A DNA stretch of 64,000 nucleotides from a virus (taxonomy: Duplodnaviria > Heunggongvirae > Uroviricota > Caudoviricetes), in the IMG/VR virus record IMGVR_UViG_3300043119_000318; one strand, given 5' to 3'. The notes beneath the pieces are model-generated. The model worked only from the letters and a program-made list of their open reading frames with translations, had not been told where the DNA came from and made no database searches. This document shows positions 13,239 to 46,407 of this stretch, piece after piece (the stretch's first letter is position 1; each line of letters opens with the position of its first letter). The translations under genes and the position numbers were made by a program.

Positions 13239-14585
13239 TCAACCAAAGAAAGATTCTAGATCTACAGTGTTATCTTCAAAGTGTTCATCAAACATTTTAC
13301 GAGCCAGCTTTGGCAGCTTAGGGTCGTGATTAGATTTGGTCTTCAATTCATTTAGATAACCAGTTTGCTTACCCATTGCGAGATCGACATAGTGCTGAGC
13401 GATCACCTTACGATCAAACTGTTTAATCAGTTCATAGTTGTTCAACTGAATCTGTTTGTATGCTTCTGGGCTCATATCGCAGTACTCTGTGATTTTTTCA
13501 GCGTATTGTCTTGGTGTATAAGAACGCTTCAACATACAATAATTGATACCTGCCTTTAGAACAACTCCATTACCTTCTTCGTTGTTGGAAACACCGTAGT
13601 TAATTGCAATGGGAACAGTACCAATACGCATGGCATCAATCACCACACGGTTGAAATGCTCGCCATAGGTATTTGACCAGCTTGGATCTACAAGAAATTT
13701 AGATGTAGTTAGGATCTCATCACGCTTACCGCCAGAGATAAAGCCAAGGTAGTCGAAGGTGCCAGAGTTTTCAGCATTTTCCCAGATACGCTTACCCAAC
13801 ATTTTGTCAGTTGCATCTGGATCATACTCCTTCGTACAGTAGTATTCTTCCTTACACTTTTCCTTGGACATCATGTATGCAGCTTCCATACCATAACCAC
13901 CTACCAGAGTTTTAACCATTGGCATGTGTGGAACTGCACGAACTAAGTCATCAACACGCTTCCAACGCTTGAATGTTTGAATAGAAAGGATCTTGTTCTC
14001 ACGACCAGCATATCTTGGAGTCTCAGGAATACCAGCGATGTCTTGTGGGTTCAGAATCATTGCACGCGGAACGTTCATGAAGTCAGCTGAATCATACGCT
14101 GCAGGATGCACACATGCCAGACCTGCAAAATGTTGTTCGAACAATTGAATCCAAGTATACAACTTCTTCAGATTACCGTCATGAATAATGGCAACTTGTT
14201 TCGCTTTAACCTTCTCGATCATCGGCAGCCAGTTGACATCTTTCTCAGTGTCTTTGTTCTTAAATCCAAAGATAGATTGCCAGATTACGATGTCATGTTT
14301 GTTAGCATCCTCAACGAATTTATTGATAGACTCTTTAACTTTGTAAGAGTAGTAAGGTGCCATCCAACCATCACCCTGGTGGACAGGATAACCTGAGCCA
14401 ACACCAATCTCCCATCCTTCACCCAGCGTTTCAGGAATCTGAACTGGGCGAACAGTTTTATTACCCTTCAAATATGCAAAGTTAACTTCGTGACCAAGCT
14501 CTTTTAAACCAGCCATCAAATGTTCACAGTGATTGATGATACCACCGAAGTTATTGAACGTATGCATTACCATTAAAATTTTCAT
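13239..14585 (-). CDS. GT-B fold glycosyltransferase (GT4-like) with a C-terminal clamp-binding-like tail (VDLESFFG).
   Basis: The N-terminus MKILMVMHTFNNFGGIINHCEHL...GHEV and the C-terminal EHFNRVVIDAMRIGTVPIA (Ex7E-type) block are GT4 hallmarks. The tail resembles T4 gp43 SLDFLFG. Confidence 0.6.
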   Translation of the reverse strand: MKILMVMHTFNNFGGIINHCEHLMAGLKELGHEVNFAYLKGNKTVRPVQIPETLGEGWEIGVGSGYPVHQGDGWMAPYYSYKVKESINKFVEDANKHDIVIWQSIFGFKNKDTEKDVNWLPMIEKVKAKQVAIIHDGNLKKLYTWIQLFEQHFAGLACVHPAAYDSADFMNVPRAMILNPQDIAGIPETPRYAGRENKILSIQTFKRWKRVDDLVRAVPHMPMVKTLVGGYGMEAAYMMSKEKCKEEYYCTKEYDPDATDKMLGKRIWENAENSGTFDYLGFISGGKRDEILTTSKFLVDPSWSNTYGEHFNRVVIDAMRIGTVPIAINYGVSNNEEGNGVVLKAGINYCMLKRSYTPRQYAEKITEYCDMSPEAYKQIQLNNYELIKQFDRKVIAQHYVDLAMGKQTGYLNELKTKSNHDPKLPKLARKMFDEHFEDNTVDLESFFG

Positions 14586-14599
14586 AATTATCTTTCAGT

Positions 14600-15937
14600 T
14601 TAAAAGAAGTCTTCAAGCGAAGATTTAACAGAGTCTGGATGATACTTCTGCAAAACAGTAGTTCCCATCTTCGATTCTAGGTAGTCATACCAGTCTTGGC
14701 TTTCCCACATACCAGAACCAACACCATTCCAGAGTGGACGCCACTCTGGATGTTCTTTATTTAGACGACGAGATTCAACAAAGTCAAATCGACAGTCTTC
14801 ATATTCCTTAGTACCGAGCTCAAGCATCTTCTCACGGAAGTAAACCACAAGCGAAATACGCTCAGAACCTTCTTGACAGACGATAGGAGTATTTCCGTGC
14901 ATAACTTCATGGTTGTTGATCAGAAGCAAATCACCGGGACGAACGTTAACAGCTACACGATACTCAGGTGCAACAAGGTAAGCACCGCTGTAACGACCAT
15001 CGTTGGATAGAGTCAACAAGTTAGACAACCCGCTAGTCAAGTCACCGGCATCGTAGTGAGCAGCTGTGCGGAAAGTTTTGTTAACAGTTACAGTGGTGAA
15101 TGGTGTTCCAGGAACCAGGAATTGCTTATCAATCTTCGAAGCAGCTTCCATTTGATTCCCATAACGCCATGGGAGCAAATCTTTAAATCCAGCAGCAAGG
15201 GTTTGTAGGAAAGGAAAAGCCATGGCAAACTTCTCAGGATTCTTCTGAGTATAAGAAGTGGCGCGACCATAAGGGATGCGTGGATAGCGATCGAACCAAC
15301 CAGCAATACCAGAGTTAACAGAGTTAGCATAGGTGGTGGCGCAGATCAGTTTCTCAGCCACGTACTTGGCGGAAGCAATCTGCTCATCCTCGGAAAGAAT
15401 TTTAGTGGCATCTACCCATGCTTCAAAGTTGAACTTATCTTTCTGAACACGGTCAATGGACCATACATTGGAACGATTCGAGATGACACCTTTCTTAGAA
15501 GCATGCTTCTTACGAATTTCTTCTACTGGATCTTCGCCGAACAGGTTACCAGTTGGCTTGAGAAAATAGTCAACCATGTCATACTCATACTCAGTGACCC
15601 AATCGCGATTGCCTAACTTATCAGCACGCGGACCTGCAGCCAAACCTCTGTTCTGAGTTTCGATGGCAGCTTCACGTAGACCTGCATAGGCAGCATCCTG
15701 CTGTTCTTTGGTGAAGAAGTTCTTGCGAAACTTCATGATGATTCTACGCTCGTCCTTATTCTCAATCGAATCACCATATTCTGGCGGAGCGTACACATCA
15801 CAATCTTCTTCCAACAGAACATCGTAGTGAGACTCGTCTAGAAATTGACCCAACAAATGAGTGCAATCATGTTTTCTATCAGCGACAATAACCTTTACCA
15901 TATAATTCTCCTTAGAACTTAAAACCTTCGTAGCCAT
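14600..15937 (-). CDS. 2OG-Fe(II) dioxygenase, a candidate nucleic-acid base oxygenase (TET/JBP-like), with C-terminal SSLEDFF identical to the tail of this phage's DNA polymerase.
   Basis: An HYD (HxD) motif, about 55 aa to NNHEVMHG, then ERIS (RxS) about 13 aa later. The final 7 aa are identical to those of gp43. Confidence 0.55.
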   Translation of the reverse strand: MATKVLSSKENYMVKVIVADRKHDCTHLLGQFLDESHYDVLLEEDCDVYAPPEYGDSIENKDERRIIMKFRKNFFTKEQQDAAYAGLREAAIETQNRGLAAGPRADKLGNRDWVTEYEYDMVDYFLKPTGNLFGEDPVEEIRKKHASKKGVISNRSNVWSIDRVQKDKFNFEAWVDATKILSEDEQIASAKYVAEKLICATTYANSVNSGIAGWFDRYPRIPYGRATSYTQKNPEKFAMAFPFLQTLAAGFKDLLPWRYGNQMEAASKIDKQFLVPGTPFTTVTVNKTFRTAAHYDAGDLTSGLSNLLTLSNDGRYSGAYLVAPEYRVAVNVRPGDLLLINNHEVMHGNTPIVCQEGSERISLVVYFREKMLELGTKEYEDCRFDFVESRRLNKEHPEWRPLWNGVGSGMWESQDWYDYLESKMGTTVLQKYHPDSVKSSLEDFF

Positions 15938-17315: not shown

Positions 17316-17637
17316 CGCCTGTATATGCTATATTATTTTCTTTGATACCGTAAATGATAAGATCTCTTAGAAATTCACCCAAGTACACTTCGAAGTCTTT
17401 TAACTGTTTTGCTGTGAAGTCTTTCCCAGCAGATTCATGCATCGTGTAGTCAAACTTCATCGTCACATGCTCTTCGTCAGCGTCGCCTCGGATCGTATCA
17501 AAAGACACCTTACCGTAAGACACTATTATACCTGAATATGGCTCGGCGAGCAACTTTATCGCATCAACTCCAACCGCATCTTTGTGTTTAACAACTTGAT
17601 GTGGTGGAAGCTTCCAATCATCTGAAACTTCATACAT
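17269..17637 (-). CDS. Hypothetical protein occupying the position of T4 gene 40.
   Basis: A 122-aa ORF between uvsX and gp41. No motif is recognised. Confidence 0.3.
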   Translation of the reverse strand: MYEVSDDWKLPPHQVVKHKDAVGVDAIKLLAEPYSGIIVSYGKVSFDTIRGDADEEHVTMKFDYTMHESAGKDFTAKQLKDFEVYLGEFLRDLIIYGIKENNIAYTGGVDDSRENDSFKSHQ

Positions 17638-17639
17638 AA

Positions 17640-18203
17640 TTAGTCTCCAATCAATGCAAGTTCAGCATCAATGTCTTCACCCTTCATAATTTCTGAAGTC
17701 GAAACTTGATACTTATTTTTAACAAACTCAGAGAAAGTCTTTTGCTGAATAATTGGAAGCCAGAAGTCTTTGCTATCGGTATCCTTCAGACGATACTTTT
17801 TATCTTCAACAACGCCATCTTGATCTACTTTGCTGTACCATCCATTGCTTGGTTTAACGACATGTCCAGATTCTAGAGCAATGTCAAGTAAGCCAGACCA
17901 ACGGCTAATGCCGCCGTCAAAAGATACGCTAACAGGTATTTTAGATTTCTCACGAACATAACGACTCTTTTCTACGTTGATGATAAAGTTGTAACCAACA
18001 ATTTCAGTTCCGTCTTTTTCTTGTTGACGACCAAGAATGAAGATATTGTCAGCAGAGTAGTAAGAACCAGTGTTATGAGTAACTACTCCATTTTCTAACA
18101 CATAATGTTCAACATCCTTTACTGAAATGTCATATACCTTCTTTTTACCAACAGGTGTTATCGATTTAATTTTCATTTTGCGGTTTCCTTTTACATTTAT
18201 CAT
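17640..18203 (-). CDS. uvsX: UvsX recombinase C-terminal fragment, preceded by the C-terminal half of a split intein (IntC).
   Basis: The N-terminal 44 aa, KKKVYDISVKDVEHYVLENGVVTHN, are followed by the +1 Thr (intein blocks F/G). The remainder, GSYYSADNIFILGRQQ...FINVEKSR...SGLLDIALESG, aligns to T4 UvsX from MTGG|TGVMYSADTVFIIG onward. Confidence 0.75.
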   Translation of the reverse strand: MINVKGNRKMKIKSITPVGKKKVYDISVKDVEHYVLENGVVTHNTGSYYSADNIFILGRQQEKDGTEIVGYNFIINVEKSRYVREKSKIPVSVSFDGGISRWSGLLDIALESGHVVKPSNGWYSKVDQDGVVEDKKYRLKDTDSKDFWLPIIQQKTFSEFVKNKYQVSTSEIMKGEDIDAELALIGD

Positions 18204-18870
18204 TATGCCATCTTTTTATATTAGAGGCAGTCGTCACAGTATCACAATGAGAACATTTATATTTCTGTTCGGGTTTCAATTTTCTTGGGTTAACCCAATC
18301 GGAACAATTAAATCTACCATCAGAAATTGATACTCTAATTATTTCTTTAGTATGCACATTTTGTAACATTCTAAGACCCTTCTTTCCGATCTTCTCTCTA
18401 TGTTCATTAGATTTCGGTTTTTTGGCGACCATCTCAACCCAATCAGATATCTGTTTTTCAGTTCTATAATTCTTTCCAGAATGTATATTAGATAATTTCT
18501 GTTTAGTTTCTTCAGAATGGTGTTTACCATAGAAATTGTTACCTTCACCTGAATACTGTATCGATAGAATTTTTGAACGTTCTTTTTTACAGTATTCAAA
18601 TAAATGAGAATTTATAGATCTGGCGCTTTGACCAACCCCAATTCTACTCATCGAATGCCATGCATGAACCAGACTACTAGTTTTATACATTTTATACAAC
18701 AACCAATGCGCCAAATAGTGCTGTCTTGCAGTTAGTAGAACTAGATTCTCTTTAGAGTCATCACCACCCATACAACAAGGTATTATATGATGAGATTCCT
18801 TATAGTCATCTAGTTTTGGATTAGTTTTAGCATCTAAAACTAAGTTCTCGTAAATTTTATAATAGTTCAT
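18166..18870 (-). CDS. Free-standing HNH homing endonuclease.
   Basis: HHIIPCCMGGDDSKENLVLLTARQHYLAH (HNH) near the N-terminus. It lies in a different frame between the two uvsX halves. It has its own TATAAATA late promoter and a GGAGG Shine-Dalgarno sequence. Confidence 0.75.
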   Translation of the reverse strand: MNYYKIYENLVLDAKTNPKLDDYKESHHIIPCCMGGDDSKENLVLLTARQHYLAHWLLYKMYKTSSLVHAWHSMSRIGVGQSARSINSHLFEYCKKERSKILSIQYSGEGNNFYGKHHSEETKQKLSNIHSGKNYRTEKQISDWVEMVAKKPKSNEHREKIGKKGLRMLQNVHTKEIIRVSISDGRFNCSDWVNPRKLKPEQKYKCSHCDTVTTASNIKRWHNDKCKRKPQNEN

Positions 18871-18886
18871 AGTTTCCTCCTACAAC

Positions 18887-18894
18887 TATTTATA
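18887..18894 (-). promoter_or_regulatory. T4-type late promoter TATAAATA serving the HNH endonuclease gene.
   Basis: The minus strand reads TTTTATAAATAGTTGTAGGAGGAAACTATG: TATAAATA, 16 nt, then ATG, with a GGAGG Shine-Dalgarno sequence. Confidence 0.55.
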
Positions 18895-18906
18895 AAATTT
18901 TGAATC

Positions 18907-19815
18907 TTAGTATTCAGCTGATTCCATACCAACAGCCAAATTTTTAGCCTCTACCCATTCATTATTAATTAAAAATTTGTGTTTATCTGAACAAATAACC
19001 TTATATCCATCTTCAAATTCCACCTCAAAACACTCAGGCTCGCCATCTTCTAGTGTTTCTGGATTCCAGGTATATGTTACTTCTTTGCTACCATCAAGGG
19101 TTTTAACTAAATCACCAACTACGAAATCCTCAATAGATTTATATGTTCCATCTGATAGTTCTATTTTCGTGCCTGCAACCAAACAACCACCACCAACGAT
19201 GTCCTTTGGATACAATCCGATTTCTTTATACGTATGGTTCACAACAACCATAGGAATATCCTTCATGGTCAAGTGTGGAGTTACCATACGGAACAACGAC
19301 TTCATTTGCTTGGCACGGCTCATATCGGCAACCGACTTACCGTCCAAGGCATCCTCGACTTCTTTCTTAGAAGCAAGATTACCAATGGAGTCAATGATGA
19401 TCATGATTTTATCACTACGCTCGATGACAGAAAGTTGCTGCATGATATCAAACTTCAACTGTTCAACGTCCATGATTGGAGTATGCACAACACGCGAAGT
19501 ATCAATACCAAACGAATCGAAGTAAGACTGTGGAGTGCCGAACTCAGAATCATAGAACAGCAAAGCTGATTCTGGATACTTGTCCATGTATGACTTTGCC
19601 ATCAGCAAAGAGAATGCGGTCTTAAAGTGTTTCGATGGACCTGCCCACATCGTGAGTCCAGGAACGAATCCACCGTCAAGTCGACCTGAAAGTGCGACGT
19701 TGATTACGGGAATAGAAGTGGGAATCATATCCTTCTTCTGAAAGAACTTTGATTGTGCAAGAATCGCAGTTTCTTTAATTGTAGTATTTTTCTTAATTTT
19801 ATCTAGTATGCTCAT
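18907..19815 (-). CDS. uvsX: UvsX recombinase N-terminal fragment (RecA-like core, Walker A/B), fused in frame to the N-terminal half of a split intein (IntN).
   Basis: A RecA/UvsX-like N-extein up to IVGGG. From Cys211 the sequence reads CLVAGTKIELSDGT...SDKHKFL (Hint blocks A and B) and ends after about 93 aa. Confidence 0.8.
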   Translation of the reverse strand: MSILDKIKKNTTIKETAILAQSKFFQKKDMIPTSIPVINVALSGRLDGGFVPGLTMWAGPSKHFKTAFSLLMAKSYMDKYPESALLFYDSEFGTPQSYFDSFGIDTSRVVHTPIMDVEQLKFDIMQQLSVIERSDKIMIIIDSIGNLASKKEVEDALDGKSVADMSRAKQMKSLFRMVTPHLTMKDIPMVVVNHTYKEIGLYPKDIVGGGCLVAGTKIELSDGTYKSIEDFVVGDLVKTLDGSKEVTYTWNPETLEDGEPECFEVEFEDGYKVICSDKHKFLINNEWVEAKNLAVGMESAEY

Positions 19816-19833
19816 AGTATTCCTTAGTTTAGT

Positions 19834-20385
19834 TTATGGGTTCCATCGTGAATGAGGAACATCGAATACAAAAGTTATTCGAACACAGTCACCGGTGTTT
19901 TCTGTTCCATGTAATAATTTATTGTTGAACCAAAGTAGAGTACCAGGTTCAACATCAACAAATTCGTCACCTACATGGTAACGATAGGTTCCTTGAATTG
20001 ATAGATGATATCTATCTTTTGTTTGGTAGTAGCTACCGTCATCGATATGTAAACCAACATGACCACCTACAGGTAGAGACAAAAAACCACACCGTTTGAA
20101 AGTGTTAAGTCTATTTCGCTTTAACCAAGAAATGATTTCTGTGTGTCGATGATATGCTGGTGTGGCTACAGAAAGCTCACTATCTCCAACGAAATCTTTA
20201 GCGGCGCGTACTGCACCAATAACCAGCTGCAGCACGTCCGCATTAATATCATCGTATCCACGATCTAGAAGGGACTCAACTTTTTCGAGTTTCTTTTGAG
20301 AACCCCAATCTTCTGGATACTGTTCTAGCTGTTTGAGTATCTTAGAGACATTGATTCCTGTCTTAATAACTCTGATGTTTTTCAT
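19834..20385 (-). CDS. Cupin / 2OG-Fe(II) oxygenase-like protein.
   Basis: HIDDG (HxD) and LLHGTEN (distal His) motifs. Size and fold are typical of cyanophage 2OG oxygenases. Confidence 0.45.
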   Translation of the reverse strand: MKNIRVIKTGINVSKILKQLEQYPEDWGSQKKLEKVESLLDRGYDDINADVLQLVIGAVRAAKDFVGDSELSVATPAYHRHTEIISWLKRNRLNTFKRCGFLSLPVGGHVGLHIDDGSYYQTKDRYHLSIQGTYRYHVGDEFVDVEPGTLLWFNNKLLHGTENTGDCVRITFVFDVPHSRWNP

Positions 20386-20630
20386 GCAAGAAATTCTAAC
20401 AACTGGGCTTCTGACATAGAGCCAACCTTGCGTTTAACTTCCGCATTGTTTTCATTGACAATGATCATCGTGGGCACGGAACGAATGCCATAGTGCAGTG
20501 CTGCAGCAGTGTCATGGTCAATATCAATTTCTTCAATGGGCACTGTGATTTTATCGCCGGCATTTTTAATAATTTGCGTCATCGATTTGCACGGTGCGCA
20601 CCATTCTGCTTTAAATTTTAATACTCTCAT
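20382..20630 (-). CDS. Thioredoxin or glutaredoxin-like protein.
   Basis: WCAPCK active site. The start was set at the internal Met (MRVLKF) preceded by AAGGAAAC. The longer ORF-track version would overlap the upstream gene by about 80 nt. Confidence 0.6.
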   Translation of the reverse strand: MRVLKFKAEWCAPCKSMTQIIKNAGDKITVPIEEIDIDHDTAAALHYGIRSVPTMIIVNENNAEVKRKVGSMSEAQLLEFLA

Positions 20631-20638
20631 AGGTTTCC

Positions 20639-21256
20639 TTATGTGTAATGACAATACGTTGATAGTATGTATTTTGAGTTGCTGATAGGTGGAAGTGCCT
20701 TGTGTGGGTACATCCACATTGGAGGGAATACTACTATTCTACCTCGCCTTGGGTTAATACTCAAATCTTTTTCTGGATAAAAACTTGAGTCATTGAAAAC
20801 CGTTTGTCCGCCGTCTTCAACATCATTCAGATAAAAGAACATCGAAAGGAACCTGCGCGCAGAAGAATAATCTCCAACGTCACTATGCCAGTCAAACTTA
20901 TCCGTATCGTTTACACTATACTTCTTAAGTCTAAGTTCTTCATATCCAATTTTAGTTGGGAAGAATTCGATCTCACATTTTTCTTTATAGAACTCAACTA
21001 GATTTTTACTTAAAGTGTAGAGCTCTATACAGTTTTCTTGAAATTCTTCTTCTTTAGTTAAGTTTAACTCGTCGAATCTTTTCTGATAAGAACCATGCCA
21101 AGTAGCTTCTGTAGATTCAACATTTAGTGAAGCATCAAATTTTTCAATAAGCTCATTGCATAATTCATCGCTCAATACGTCGTCAAGAATCATAACGTAA
21201 TCAGATAGCTTTTTCAAAAGAAGTCCTCCAATGAAGATTGTTGTTCGGTTTTCCAA
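20639..21256 (-). CDS. 2OG-Fe(II) oxygenase, prolyl-4-hydroxylase-like.
   Basis: HSDVGD (HxD) and a distal His in PPMWMYPHKA. P4Hc-type composition. Confidence 0.55.
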   Translation of the reverse strand: MENRTTIFIGGLLLKKLSDYVMILDDVLSDELCNELIEKFDASLNVESTEATWHGSYQKRFDELNLTKEEEFQENCIELYTLSKNLVEFYKEKCEIEFFPTKIGYEELRLKKYSVNDTDKFDWHSDVGDYSSARRFLSMFFYLNDVEDGGQTVFNDSSFYPEKDLSINPRRGRIVVFPPMWMYPHKALPPISNSKYILSTYCHYT

Positions 21257-45810: not shown

Positions 45811-46407
45811 TTATTTAGGCACCTTTTCTAATCGTTTAATGTCTTTATAGTAACCACGAATACGAATTCCATTACCAAGAGCATTAATATTATATTTTGG
45901 ATTTTCTTTACACCAATTTGATAAATTAGTTACTTGTATCGTCGTGTTATTTTCGAATGTTATATCATAAGTTTCTGCATTCGTTTCAGAAGATCTAGCT
46001 CGTTGTTTCGCCGTCGGCGTGGCACCTAGCATTGGATGTTGCAATCCATCTGAATATTGTTTCTTTTTAGTTTCACTTATTTTTCTTTTTACTTCTTCTG
46101 AATGTTGTTTACCTAAAAAATTTGGGTTTATTCTACTTGGATTTAAATCACCGGTAGCAAACCCTACGCTTCTATTATTCCAATTCATACATAATGGATC
46201 ATCAATATATTTATTAATAGCGAGTTCTTCTGCTAAACACAAATCTTCAAATGATGTATGTTCAGATAAAATCTCTCTACTTAATTGAGATTTATCTTTT
46301 ATAGACTTTACCCATCTTCCAGAGCCGAGATAATTTTTTGAATATTTTCTAGAACATCTTCCGATGTAATATTTTCCGCTAGTATGTGTTGTTTTATATA
46401 TGAACAT
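45811..46407 (-). CDS. GIY-YIG homing endonuclease with NUMOD-type DNA-binding repeats (segD-like position next to gp23).
   Basis: GKYYIG...YLGSG and NPNFLGKQHSEEVKRKIS (NUMOD3-like). Confidence 0.65.
   Translation of the reverse strand: MFIYKTTHTSGKYYIGRCSRKYSKNYLGSGRWVKSIKDKSQLSREILSEHTSFEDLCLAEELAINKYIDDPLCMNWNNRSVGFATGDLNPSRINPNFLGKQHSEEVKRKISETKKKQYSDGLQHPMLGATPTAKQRARSSETNAETYDITFENNTTIQVTNLSNWCKENPKYNINALGNGIRIRGYYKDIKRLEKVPK

Follow-up and report, generated by a model that had tools for sequence, protein, structure and literature searches.

We analyzed a stretch of 64,000 nucleotides (nt), referred to below as the window, from a virus of the class Caudoviricetes (IMG/VR virus record IMGVR_UViG_3300043119_000318), in which the gene for the recombinase UvsX lies in pieces. 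Three consecutive open reading frames (ORFs) occupy the uvsX locus: ORF1 (18907-19815, 302 amino acids [aa]), ORF2 (18166-18870, 234 aa), and ORF3 (17640-18203, 187 aa). All genes in this region of the window are on the minus strand. An earlier note, made from the letters of this DNA alone, had described the three ORFs as a “fractured gene,” that is, a uvsX interrupted by the two halves of a split intein with a free-standing HNH endonuclease gene between them. The ORFs are present at the coordinates it gave, and every element of that description that can be tested (precise insertion, gapless join, intein blocks, and a separate endonuclease gene) holds. We conclude, with a probability of roughly 0.86, that uvsX carries a composite selfish element consisting of a split class-1 intein and a free-standing MobE-family HNH gene in the break.

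The outer parts of ORF1 and ORF3 together make up one recombinase. Residues 1 to 212 of ORF1 match UvsX-like recombinases (phrog_97, 9e-68), with RecA (PF00154) also matched, while the part of ORF3 that follows the intein segment matches T4_UVSX_C (PF21134, 9.7e-18). Joining ORF1 residues 1 to 210 in silico to ORF3 from Thr45 yields a 353-aa protein that is 50.7% identical to T4 UvsX and aligns with it without a gap at the join (VGGG/TGSYYSAD versus MGGG/TGPMYSAD, the slash marking the join). This agrees with the original description, in which a Thr and the rest of UvsX directly follow the intein C-half. The spliced product also matches the sequence of the T4 UvsX structure 3IO5 over residues 28 to 347 (E value of 5.9e-110).

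Relatives without the intein define the ends of the insertion. In a scan of IMG/VR, uvsX was uninterrupted in about 73 of 80 related loci, with the C-extein starting at the nucleotide right after the N-extein. The nearest intein-less allele is 92% and 87% identical to the two window exteins, and an empty allele (L026) matches the 30-nt flanks in the window nearly base for base. Because the exteins abut at the same nucleotide in these relatives, the inserted element comprises positions 18072-19185, or 1,114 nt, between codons G210 and T211 of a T4-type uvsX. Aligned to Escherichia coli RecA, the insertion point falls at ...TTGG/NA..., a position that we take to be the C-terminal hinge of DNA-binding loop L2. 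The insertion had been thought to lie beside the ATPase core; this alignment places it outside the ATPase motifs. We looked for consistent recoding of the target site between occupied and empty alleles and found none. The element is richer in A and T than the gene that hosts it: the GC content is 35% in the intein N-half (IntN), 32% in the endonuclease gene, and 30% in the intein C-half (IntC), compared with 42% and 38.5% in the N- and C-exteins, respectively, and 40% in the window. Such AT-richness is consistent with a foreign origin. The features of the locus are listed in Table 1.

Table 1. Features of the interrupted uvsX locus, in order of transcription (window coordinates)
Feature	Coordinates	Strand	Evidence
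uvsX N-extein, UvsX residues 1-210; RecA core with Walker A GPSKHFKT, ending ...DIVGGG	19186..19815	-	phrog_97, PF00154, T4 UvsX alignment
IntN, 92 aa, from Cys1 (CLVAGTKIE...) through block B (SDKH) to ...GMESAEY and TAA stop (18907-18909)	18907..19185	-	TIGR01445
36-nt spacer with TATAAATA (18887-18894, T4-type late-promoter box), GGAGG Shine-Dalgarno sequence (18876-18880), and two more in-frame stops	18871..18906	-	
Predicted RNA hairpin, 5' arm with the TATAAATA box, 3' arm with the endonuclease AUG	18852..18900	-	Minimum free energy, z-score
Free-standing homing endonuclease gene, 234 aa	18166..18870	-	T4 MobE match, phrog_655, NUMOD3
Shine-Dalgarno-like AAGGAAA for the IntC/UvsX-C ORF, inside the C-terminal endonuclease codons (CKRK)	18184..18190	-	Conservation
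IntC, 35 aa, MKIKSITPVGKKKVYDISVKDVEHYVLENGVVTHN, blocks F and G; 11-nt overlap with the endonuclease 3' end	18072..18176	-	TIGR01443
uvsX C-extein, 143 aa, from +1 Thr (TGSYYSADNIF...) through the UvsX C-terminal domain and stop	17640..18071	-	PF21134

ORF1 and ORF2 share a reading frame (both starts are 0 mod 3), with TAA, TAG, and TAG in frame between them, and ORF3 alone lies in a different frame, its start overlapping the endonuclease stop. The description given at the outset, with the endonuclease in another frame than ORF1, is thus incorrect on this point. The window is a metagenomic contig, and the earlier note had raised the possibility that the changes of frame are sequencing errors; the true gene would then be contiguous, being a plain uvsX or one whose intein includes an HNH domain in frame. 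We consider an assembly or sequencing artefact extremely improbable. The exact ORF1 protein occurs on seven contigs, and the five loci retrieved come from as many samples and from two assembly pipelines (JGI 3300043036, 3300043137, and 3300036945; Logan SRR11805301 and SRR11805346) and carry the same three ORFs with 0 to 1 substitutions and no indels over 2,176 nt. Three in-frame stops, a promoter box, a Shine-Dalgarno sequence, and an ATG between ORF1 and ORF2 are beyond the reach of a single error. The same three-gene layout also recurs in finished genomes of cultured phages and in dozens of divergent loci, with differing overlap lengths.

Each intein half is fused to one extein in a separate ORF, IntN ending at a TAA stop and IntC having its own ATG and Shine-Dalgarno sequence. 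From Cys211, IntN scores 26.7 bits against TIGR01445 (cut-off, 24.5; ORF1 residues 211 to 283), and IntC scores 29.3 bits against TIGR01443 (cut-off, 15.6; ORF3 residues 22 to 45), reading VYDISV...VVTHN and then T. The position first proposed for IntN, at Cys211 after IVGGG, stands, while its length is 92 aa instead of about 93. For IntC, a range of 35 to 44 aa had been given; a 35-aa form starting at ATG 18176 is the most likely, and a 44-aa form from 18203 is possible. In relatives, IntC begins M(K/Q/L)(I/V)K and is 35 aa long, and an internal ATG start is also called in independent assemblies, so the true start of ORF3 in the window is probably ATG 18176 (MKIKSIT...).

Intein blocks A, B, F, and G, the first two of which the earlier note had named, are conserved in the family alignment. 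In 12 diverse loci that we read directly, Cys1, the block B S-x-x-H, the block F VYD(I/L)SV, and the terminal His-Asn are present without exception; the +1 residue is Thr in 11 of them and Ser in the other. Large metagenomic sets gave the same picture, with Cys1 in 107 of 107 IntN tails, S-x-x-H in 105 of 107, and a terminal HN in all 93 intein-bearing C-halves, for which the modal IntC length is 35 aa. Among 100 C-half proteins matched by a regular expression, the post-junction residue is Thr in 99 and Ser in 1; seven of these proteins end in GG instead of HN before the junction, and we read them as fragments of intein-less uvsX.

A profile built from 13 IntN and IntC pairs joined in silico, in which Cys1 and the block B His are both invariant, was searched against all solved structures. 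It matched 34 intein or HINT structures, including a Npu DnaE chimera (2e-10) and gp41-1 (2.8e-9, full length). The top matches, two “Tako8” designed-repeat proteins, were rejected as spurious: they are sums of subthreshold repeats, and no single stretch passes. In the window, the intein is broken between blocks B and F, at the position where gp41-1 and DnaE are split. The halves differ in net charge (IntN, -13; IntC, +2), and this polarity of an acidic IntN and a basic IntC is that typical of natural split inteins (Dassa 2009). Judged by these residues and profile matches, the element would contain a class-1 intein, naturally split at the canonical endonuclease-insertion site.

Both halves are also under purifying selection. 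In a pairwise codon comparison of eight loci, a set in which synonymous sites are near saturation, the ratio of nonsynonymous to synonymous differences per site (pN/pS) was 0.39 for IntN and 0.26 for IntC, compared with 0.25 and 0.31 for the exteins, from which it follows that the intein halves are as constrained as the recombinase. The corresponding ratio of substitution rates (dN/dS) for the intein halves is about 0.1 to 0.3, and the ORFs are intact in more than 100 clusters for each half. An alternative hypothesis is that the pieces of uvsX are pseudogenes left behind after an endonuclease insertion, with the phage relying on host RecA or on no recombinase. Some T4-like phages do lack uvsX and uvsY altogether (PMC3037559, PMC4177764), and the endonuclease is visibly decaying in three related loci (L019, L020, and L021). 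Purifying selection on both exteins and both intein halves, the many clusters with intact ORFs, and the persistence of the layout across genera, including in viable cultured phages, make this hypothesis very unlikely.

The main rival to a trans-spliced recombinase is a UvsX made of two noncovalently associated chains, with the intein halves serving as an affinity clamp or being inert, and with no splicing. There is a precedent in Aeh1 NrdA, which is split by mobE and works without splicing (cited in PMC2677866; PMC10448857). Further in its favor, the uvsX break lies in a surface loop region, the L2 hinge, where a nick might be tolerated, and splicing of the uvsX element is predicted from sequence. 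We nonetheless consider this rival unlikely, because the residues that only splicing requires (Cys1, the block B His, the terminal His-Asn, and the +1 Thr) are kept in 93 to 107 homologues per half, and in 99 of 100 proteins for the Thr, across lineages with exteins that are only 40 to 57% identical to the N-extein of the window. The low dN/dS of the halves also speaks against it. A mere clamp would need no Cys1, Asn, or +1 Thr, and were a 127-aa HINT domain to remain in the L2 loop, it would probably block the filament groove. From the conserved catalytic residues and the purifying selection, we infer that the intein splices autocatalytically.

ORF2 matches phrog_655, a homing endonuclease family (3.5e-53). 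Over 128 aa, its N-terminal domain and T4 MobE share 41% identity (BLASTP E value of 2e-29) in a match that spans HHIIP..GG.D..NLV.LT...H, and it is on account of this similarity that we assign the product, at the level of sequence, as a Mob-family HNH homing endonuclease. The MobE-like HNH N terminus (HHIIP...GG.D..N...H) is followed by NUMOD3 motifs (above threshold, 1e-9) and a C-terminal CxxC...RWHNDKCKRK module. A search of Protein Data Bank sequences with the endonuclease returned marginal HNH-motif matches only; homologues are found in 1,093 phage records. The HNH gene has start signals of its own and is, as had been proposed, a separate gene in the break. Site-specific cleavage of endonuclease-less alleles and preferential inheritance would be in keeping with the patchy distribution of the element among close relatives, its low GC content, and the endonuclease decay states described below, all of which support them indirectly.

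The gene in the break is not the same in all carriers. In Proteus phage PM2, Vibrio phage EniLVp02, and Yersinia phage TG1, its N terminus is unrelated to that in the window and reads VYK...YYIGSK, a domain that is GIY-YIG-like by eye; the TG1 record annotates it as GIY-YIG, and Pfam does not confirm this. These enzymes share with the window enzyme a C-terminal NUMOD3 / KIGRKG / CxxC...RWHxDNCK module (the break endonucleases compared with window positions 18166-18870 lie at L001:2083-2847, L002:2399-3004, and L004:2156-3010). A shared C-terminal module joined to unrelated N termini suggests that nuclease domains may have been exchanged on a constant DNA-binding module that also supplies the start signals for IntC.

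The spacer between IntN and the endonuclease gene contains the TATAAATA box (18887-18894) and the GGAGG that had been noted upstream of the endonuclease ORF. The box stands at the same position before the endonuclease ATG in five of five homologous loci, and the rest of the spacer diverges. It is this positional conservation, not the number of copies of the motif, that gives TATAAATA its value as evidence. The hairpin predicted around the box has a minimum free energy of -25.4 kcal/mol (z = -3.64 in a 121-nt context), equivalent hairpins are present in four of the five homologous loci (z = -3.0 to -3.7), and in locus L025 a U-A pair has been replaced by C-G through a compensatory change (AGUUC/GAACU to AGUCC/GGACU). 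A hairpin that masks the start codon is part of the design of 15 of 16 fractured-gene endonucleases and has been shown experimentally for Aeh1 mobE, in which read-through transcripts hide the endonuclease start and late transcripts beginning inside the hairpin expose it (PMC2677866). At the other end of the gene, tgtaaaaggaaa, which encodes CKRK, lies shortly before the IntC ATG and is conserved in all five loci. Where the endonuclease is intact (four loci), its stop overlaps the IntC start by 4 or 11 nt (11 nt in the window). Alleles that have lost the endonuclease retain a remnant covering the IntC Shine-Dalgarno stretch. We found no terminator-like site on the coding strand within the three-ORF unit; a scan for sigma-70 promoters gave fewer matches than shuffled expectation and was uninformative.

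A group I or group II intron with an endonuclease ORF, removed by RNA splicing, could also interrupt a recombinase gene. In Bacillus and in phage 0305phi8-36, recA is interrupted by group I introns that carry endonuclease genes (PMC2677866), and T4 carries three group I introns with endonuclease genes. No Rfam intron family was found at an E value of ≤1 within positions 17400-20000, where the sole match was a subthreshold CRISPR repeat (E value of 0.76) that we take to be due to chance, and the endonuclease is flanked by translated, conserved intein halves in frame with the exteins. An intron is in our view the least probable of the explanations considered, less so even than an assembly error.

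If uvsX is indeed interrupted by a split intein with its own endonuclease gene, expression could proceed as follows. The ORF1 product, UvsX(1-210)-IntN (predicted mass, 33.8 kDa), and the ORF3 product, IntC-UvsX(211-353) (20.2 kDa), would associate through the acidic IntN and the basic IntC and fold into a HINT domain. Trans-splicing would then take place by an N-S acyl shift at Cys1, trans-esterification to the +1 Thr, cyclization of the terminal Asn, and an O-N shift, freeing a native UvsX of 39.7 kDa. Recombination-dependent replication and repair would thereby depend on intein chemistry. On early read-through transcripts the endonuclease would stay silent, with the hairpin pairing the TATAAATA region with the start codon, and late transcripts, starting just downstream of TATAAATA and hence without the 5' arm, would allow it to be translated. 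Such hairpin-gated late expression has been shown for Aeh1 mobE and T4 I-TevI and is predicted in the window. The 3' codons of the endonuclease gene would supply the ribosome-binding site for IntC. In a mixed infection, the endonuclease would cut an intein-less uvsX near the insertion site, and repair would copy the whole element in.

Several points weigh against this interpretation. Copies of TATAAATA are not in excess in the window (3 observed versus 4.07 expected by chance), the use of T4-type late promoters by this uncultured phage is an assumption, and the hairpin of L019 is weak (z = -0.87). Pfam models score poorly on both kinds of component: the Hint models stay below their gathering scores on the short, divergent intein pieces, and HNH and HNH_4 are below threshold on the endonuclease (16.6 versus 21.4 bits). 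AlphaFold models are of low confidence, with predicted local distance difference test (pLDDT) values of 57 for a full contiguous allele and 41 for the intein alone, and the HINT fold is thus a prediction supported by sequence profiles. Enzymes of the MobE type can cleave at sites hundreds of bases away from the gene that encodes them (PMC2988022). Finally, we infer splicing, endonuclease cleavage, and the timing of transcription from homology and conservation.

The element is not confined to uncultured phages. With IntN alone as the tblastn query, we found it in uvsX of 25 phage records, representing about 19 isolates that infect about 10 host genera. The carriers include Escherichia phages HY03 (NC_031047), ELT1, SYGD1, BYEP01, and RPN226; Shigella phage SP21535 and Salmonella phages SEA1, CF-SP2, and pSe_SNUABM_01; Klebsiella phage Lion_ER11 and Enterobacter phages UFV01 and EnC07; Proteus phages PM2 (NC_055727) and Pm5461 (NC_028762) and Yersinia phage TG1 (NC_028820); and Pseudomonas phage PspYZU05, Vibrio phages VmeM-32 and EniLVp02, and Shewanella phage Thanatos-1 (MT457552). 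A set of 158 records with at least 80% coverage of ORF3 was rejected as a list of intein carriers, since the search with IntN alone gives 25. The C-extein of HY03 is almost identical to that of T4, which does not have the element; its presence in HY03 and its absence from T4 show that it is polymorphic within a genus. The isolates nearest to the window locus have about 54 to 60% protein identity, a search for near-identical DNA among 50,697 phage records gave no match to the locus, and the window phage itself is uncultured.

The annotations of the carrier records name the pieces “DNA repair protein” and “recombinase,” “RecA-like recombination protein,” or “uvsX_1/uvsX_2,” and none mentions an intein; in PHROGs, the two halves fall into separate families, phrog_8337 and phrog_18112. 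This annotation gap thus extends over 25 GenBank/RefSeq records and two PHROG families. Genes for NrdA, helicase, and terminase harbor more distant relatives of this intein. In Campylobacter phages (NC_027996 CPt10, 119087-119335; NC_041834 IBB_35), relatives of IntN with about 38% identity lie in the gene for the ribonucleotide reductase alpha subunit, which one Campylobacter phage record says “has been disrupted.” Possibly this gene, too, is fractured or bears an intein.

Related loci differ in the state of the endonuclease gene. It is intact in the window and in L015, L016, and L025. In L019 (2066-2752) it is interrupted by an in-frame stop after 77 aa, in L020 (4425-4566) it is reduced to a C-terminal remnant of about 45 codons, and in L021 (3182-3467) an in-frame internal deletion leaves about 95 aa. 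The intein is still split in these three loci, as it is in the loci with an intact endonuclease.

A single lineage contains three uvsX alleles side by side, about 98% identical in nucleotide sequence. They are an empty site (P0241/P0242; L099/L100), a split intein without an endonuclease (P0097, 12 contigs; L096-L098), and a contiguous intein-UvsX of 490 aa (P0100, 5 contigs; L006-L009/L017/L018). In the split allele, 55 nt (a TAA stop and a 52-nt spacer) separate the last codon of IntN from the IntC ATG, and this stretch still encodes the last 16 codons of the endonuclease (SNLKRWHNDKCKKRKL and stop). Within the intein, the contiguous allele differs from the split one by a single in-frame 46-nt deletion, which removes the stop and the remnant and leaves the linker EEI. 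We had considered the endonuclease Shine-Dalgarno sequence as the source of this linker and rejected it; a three-way DNA alignment identifies EEI as the leftover IntC Shine-Dalgarno sequence. The split and the contiguous state were each reproduced exactly in independent contigs. The endonuclease remnant in the split allele, together with the 46-nt deletion in the contiguous one, indicates the order of events in this lineage: a fractured gene lost its endonuclease and was then re-fused into a cis mini-intein.

A second contiguous intein-UvsX, P0248 (L101/L102:3001-4491; 496 aa), belongs to another lineage and is 62% identical to P0100. It has no Met at the IntC boundary (…SGGRVKLASVTP…), and it could be either an ancestral contiguous form or an older re-fusion.

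Taken together, the alleles could represent an empty site, a gene fractured by an intein with a MobE-type endonuclease, decay of that endonuclease, a split intein without it, and re-fusion through the 46-nt deletion into a mini-intein that would splice in cis. We postulate that the uvsX element is a still-active, horizontally spreading, undescribed split intein, in whose relatives the whole of a partly reversible life cycle can be seen within single phage populations, a proposal that we hold to be evenly balanced between right and wrong. The model of Dassa 2009 includes endonuclease loss and in-frame endonuclease capture, and re-fusion into a mini-intein is absent from it (PMC2677866). If our proposal is true, split inteins are not an evolutionary dead end and can yield contiguous mini-inteins in nature, and the standard gene-breaking model lacks this step from split to contiguous mini-intein. 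The alleles of related contigs are unusually direct evidence on how such an element is gained, decays, and is resolved.

The genes around the three ORFs encode a family B DNA polymerase, a cluster of 2-oxoglutarate (2OG) oxygenase and thioredoxin genes, and a gp41-type helicase, and the order of uvsX, an ORF in the position of gene 40, and the gp41 helicase gene is that of T4 (uvsX, gene 40, gene 41). Between the DNA polymerase gene and uvsX (19834-21256, minus strand) lie genes for a 2OG-Fe(II) oxygenase (PF13640), a thioredoxin, and an Asp/Arg-hydroxylase-like cupin; in cyanophage-like contigs, a 2OG oxygenase and UvsX are found upstream of fractured gp41 loci (Dassa 2009, PMC2677866). Directly downstream of the helicase gene, the window encodes a Tet/JBP-family 2OG-Fe(II) dioxygenase (14600-15937, minus strand; PF12851, 3.4e-25), and next after it a group 1 glycosyltransferase (13239-14585, minus strand). 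These two may form a DNA-hypermodification module for oxidation at cytosine C5 followed by glycosylation. Elsewhere in the window, a 198-aa ORF (45811-46407, minus strand) with a GIY-YIG-like N terminus (IYKTTHTSGKYYIGR...YLGSG) and a NUMOD3 match (PF07460, 1.7e-4) is probably a second free-standing homing endonuclease gene.

Fractured genes have been known as a class since 2009, when they were described from ocean metagenomes at gp41-1 to gp41-9, NrdA, NrdJ, IMPDH, and DnaE loci (Dassa, London, Stoddard, Schueler-Furman, and Pietrokovski 2009, PMC2677866). What appears to be new here is uvsX as the host gene and a MobE-type endonuclease in the break. The earlier note had left open whether this arrangement had been reported for uvsX in a phage genome: the layout is present, unannotated, in about 19 phage isolates, and in a literature search that did not extend to InBase or to most subscription journals, we came across no account of a uvsX intein. 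A 2024 paper states that no inteins are reported in coliphages. The recombinase on which homing depends thus becomes one of the few genes known to be fractured by a split intein and a free-standing endonuclease, and a MobE-type HNH enzyme in the break had been predicted, not observed, by Dassa 2009 (PMC2677866).

The finding overturns nothing; what it gives is a tractable system, a set of split-intein variants, and evidence for a reversible step in intein evolution. The cultured carriers, which include phages of E. coli, Salmonella, Yersinia, Proteus, and Vibrio, offer a genetic system for the costs and benefits of a trans-spliced essential recombinase. Coliphages HY03, ELT1, SYGD1, BYEP01, and RPN226 are near-isogenic with T4 in uvsX, so what a natural split intein in an essential recombinase costs in fitness, how fast it splices, and how it homes are directly testable in them. 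Natural split inteins from T4-like phages are widely used in protein engineering, and this family would add about 100 sequence variants of natural Cys1/+1 Thr split inteins for protein ligation.

The uvsX locus resembles the fractured genes of Dassa 2009 in most respects. Adjacent ORFs on the same strand have split-intein halves at the break and a free-standing endonuclease gene between them, a hairpin containing TATAAATA precedes the endonuclease gene, and the 3' end of that gene overlaps the downstream half; an acidic IntN is paired with a basic IntC, the phages concerned are T4-like, and variants without an endonuclease exist (gp41-7 in that study and L096-L098 here). It differs in the host gene, since UvsX was there only the intact neighbor of a fractured gp41, in its occurrence in cultured phages and not in metagenomes alone, and in the one lineage that shows re-fusion to a contiguous mini-intein.

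As an intein, the element is similar to gp41-1 (6QAZ, 6RIZ) and to Npu and Ssp DnaE, which are likewise of class 1, with Cys1, a terminal His-Asn, the same structural split position, and similar sizes (IntN of about 88 to 102 aa and IntC of about 35 to 37 aa). Sequence identity to these inteins is low, and the uvsX intein has S-x-x-H instead of T-x-x-H in block B and Thr as the +1 residue.

The endonuclease gene is comparable to T4 mobE and Aeh1 mobE in being a free-standing gene in or beside an essential gene of DNA metabolism, with 41% identity to T4 MobE in the HNH domain, and in the predicted control by a late promoter and a hairpin that masks the ribosome-binding site and AUG (compare PMC2988022). 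T4 MobE has 141 aa, whereas the window enzyme has 234 aa and an additional C-terminal NUMOD3 and Cys/His module. The two parts of Aeh1 NrdA function as separate chains and lack an intein, while in the window intein halves flank the break in uvsX. SegA of T4 is a GIY-YIG enzyme. It cuts in uvsX, which was therefore already known as a target of homing endonucleases (PMC2988022). T4 uvsX is uninterrupted, with segA beside the gene, whereas the endonuclease gene of the window lies inside uvsX.

Inteins in recombinases of the RecA family are also found in cells, in mycobacterial RecA (PI-MtuI; 3IFJ, 2IN9, 5K08) and in archaeal RadA, and the 13-pair profile aligns over its full length with the Mycobacterium tuberculosis RecA mini-intein (E value of 6e-6). 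The RecA intein of Mycobacterium leprae lies near L2. These RecA and RadA inteins are contiguous, splice in cis, and reside in cellular genomes, whereas the uvsX intein is split and resides in phages.

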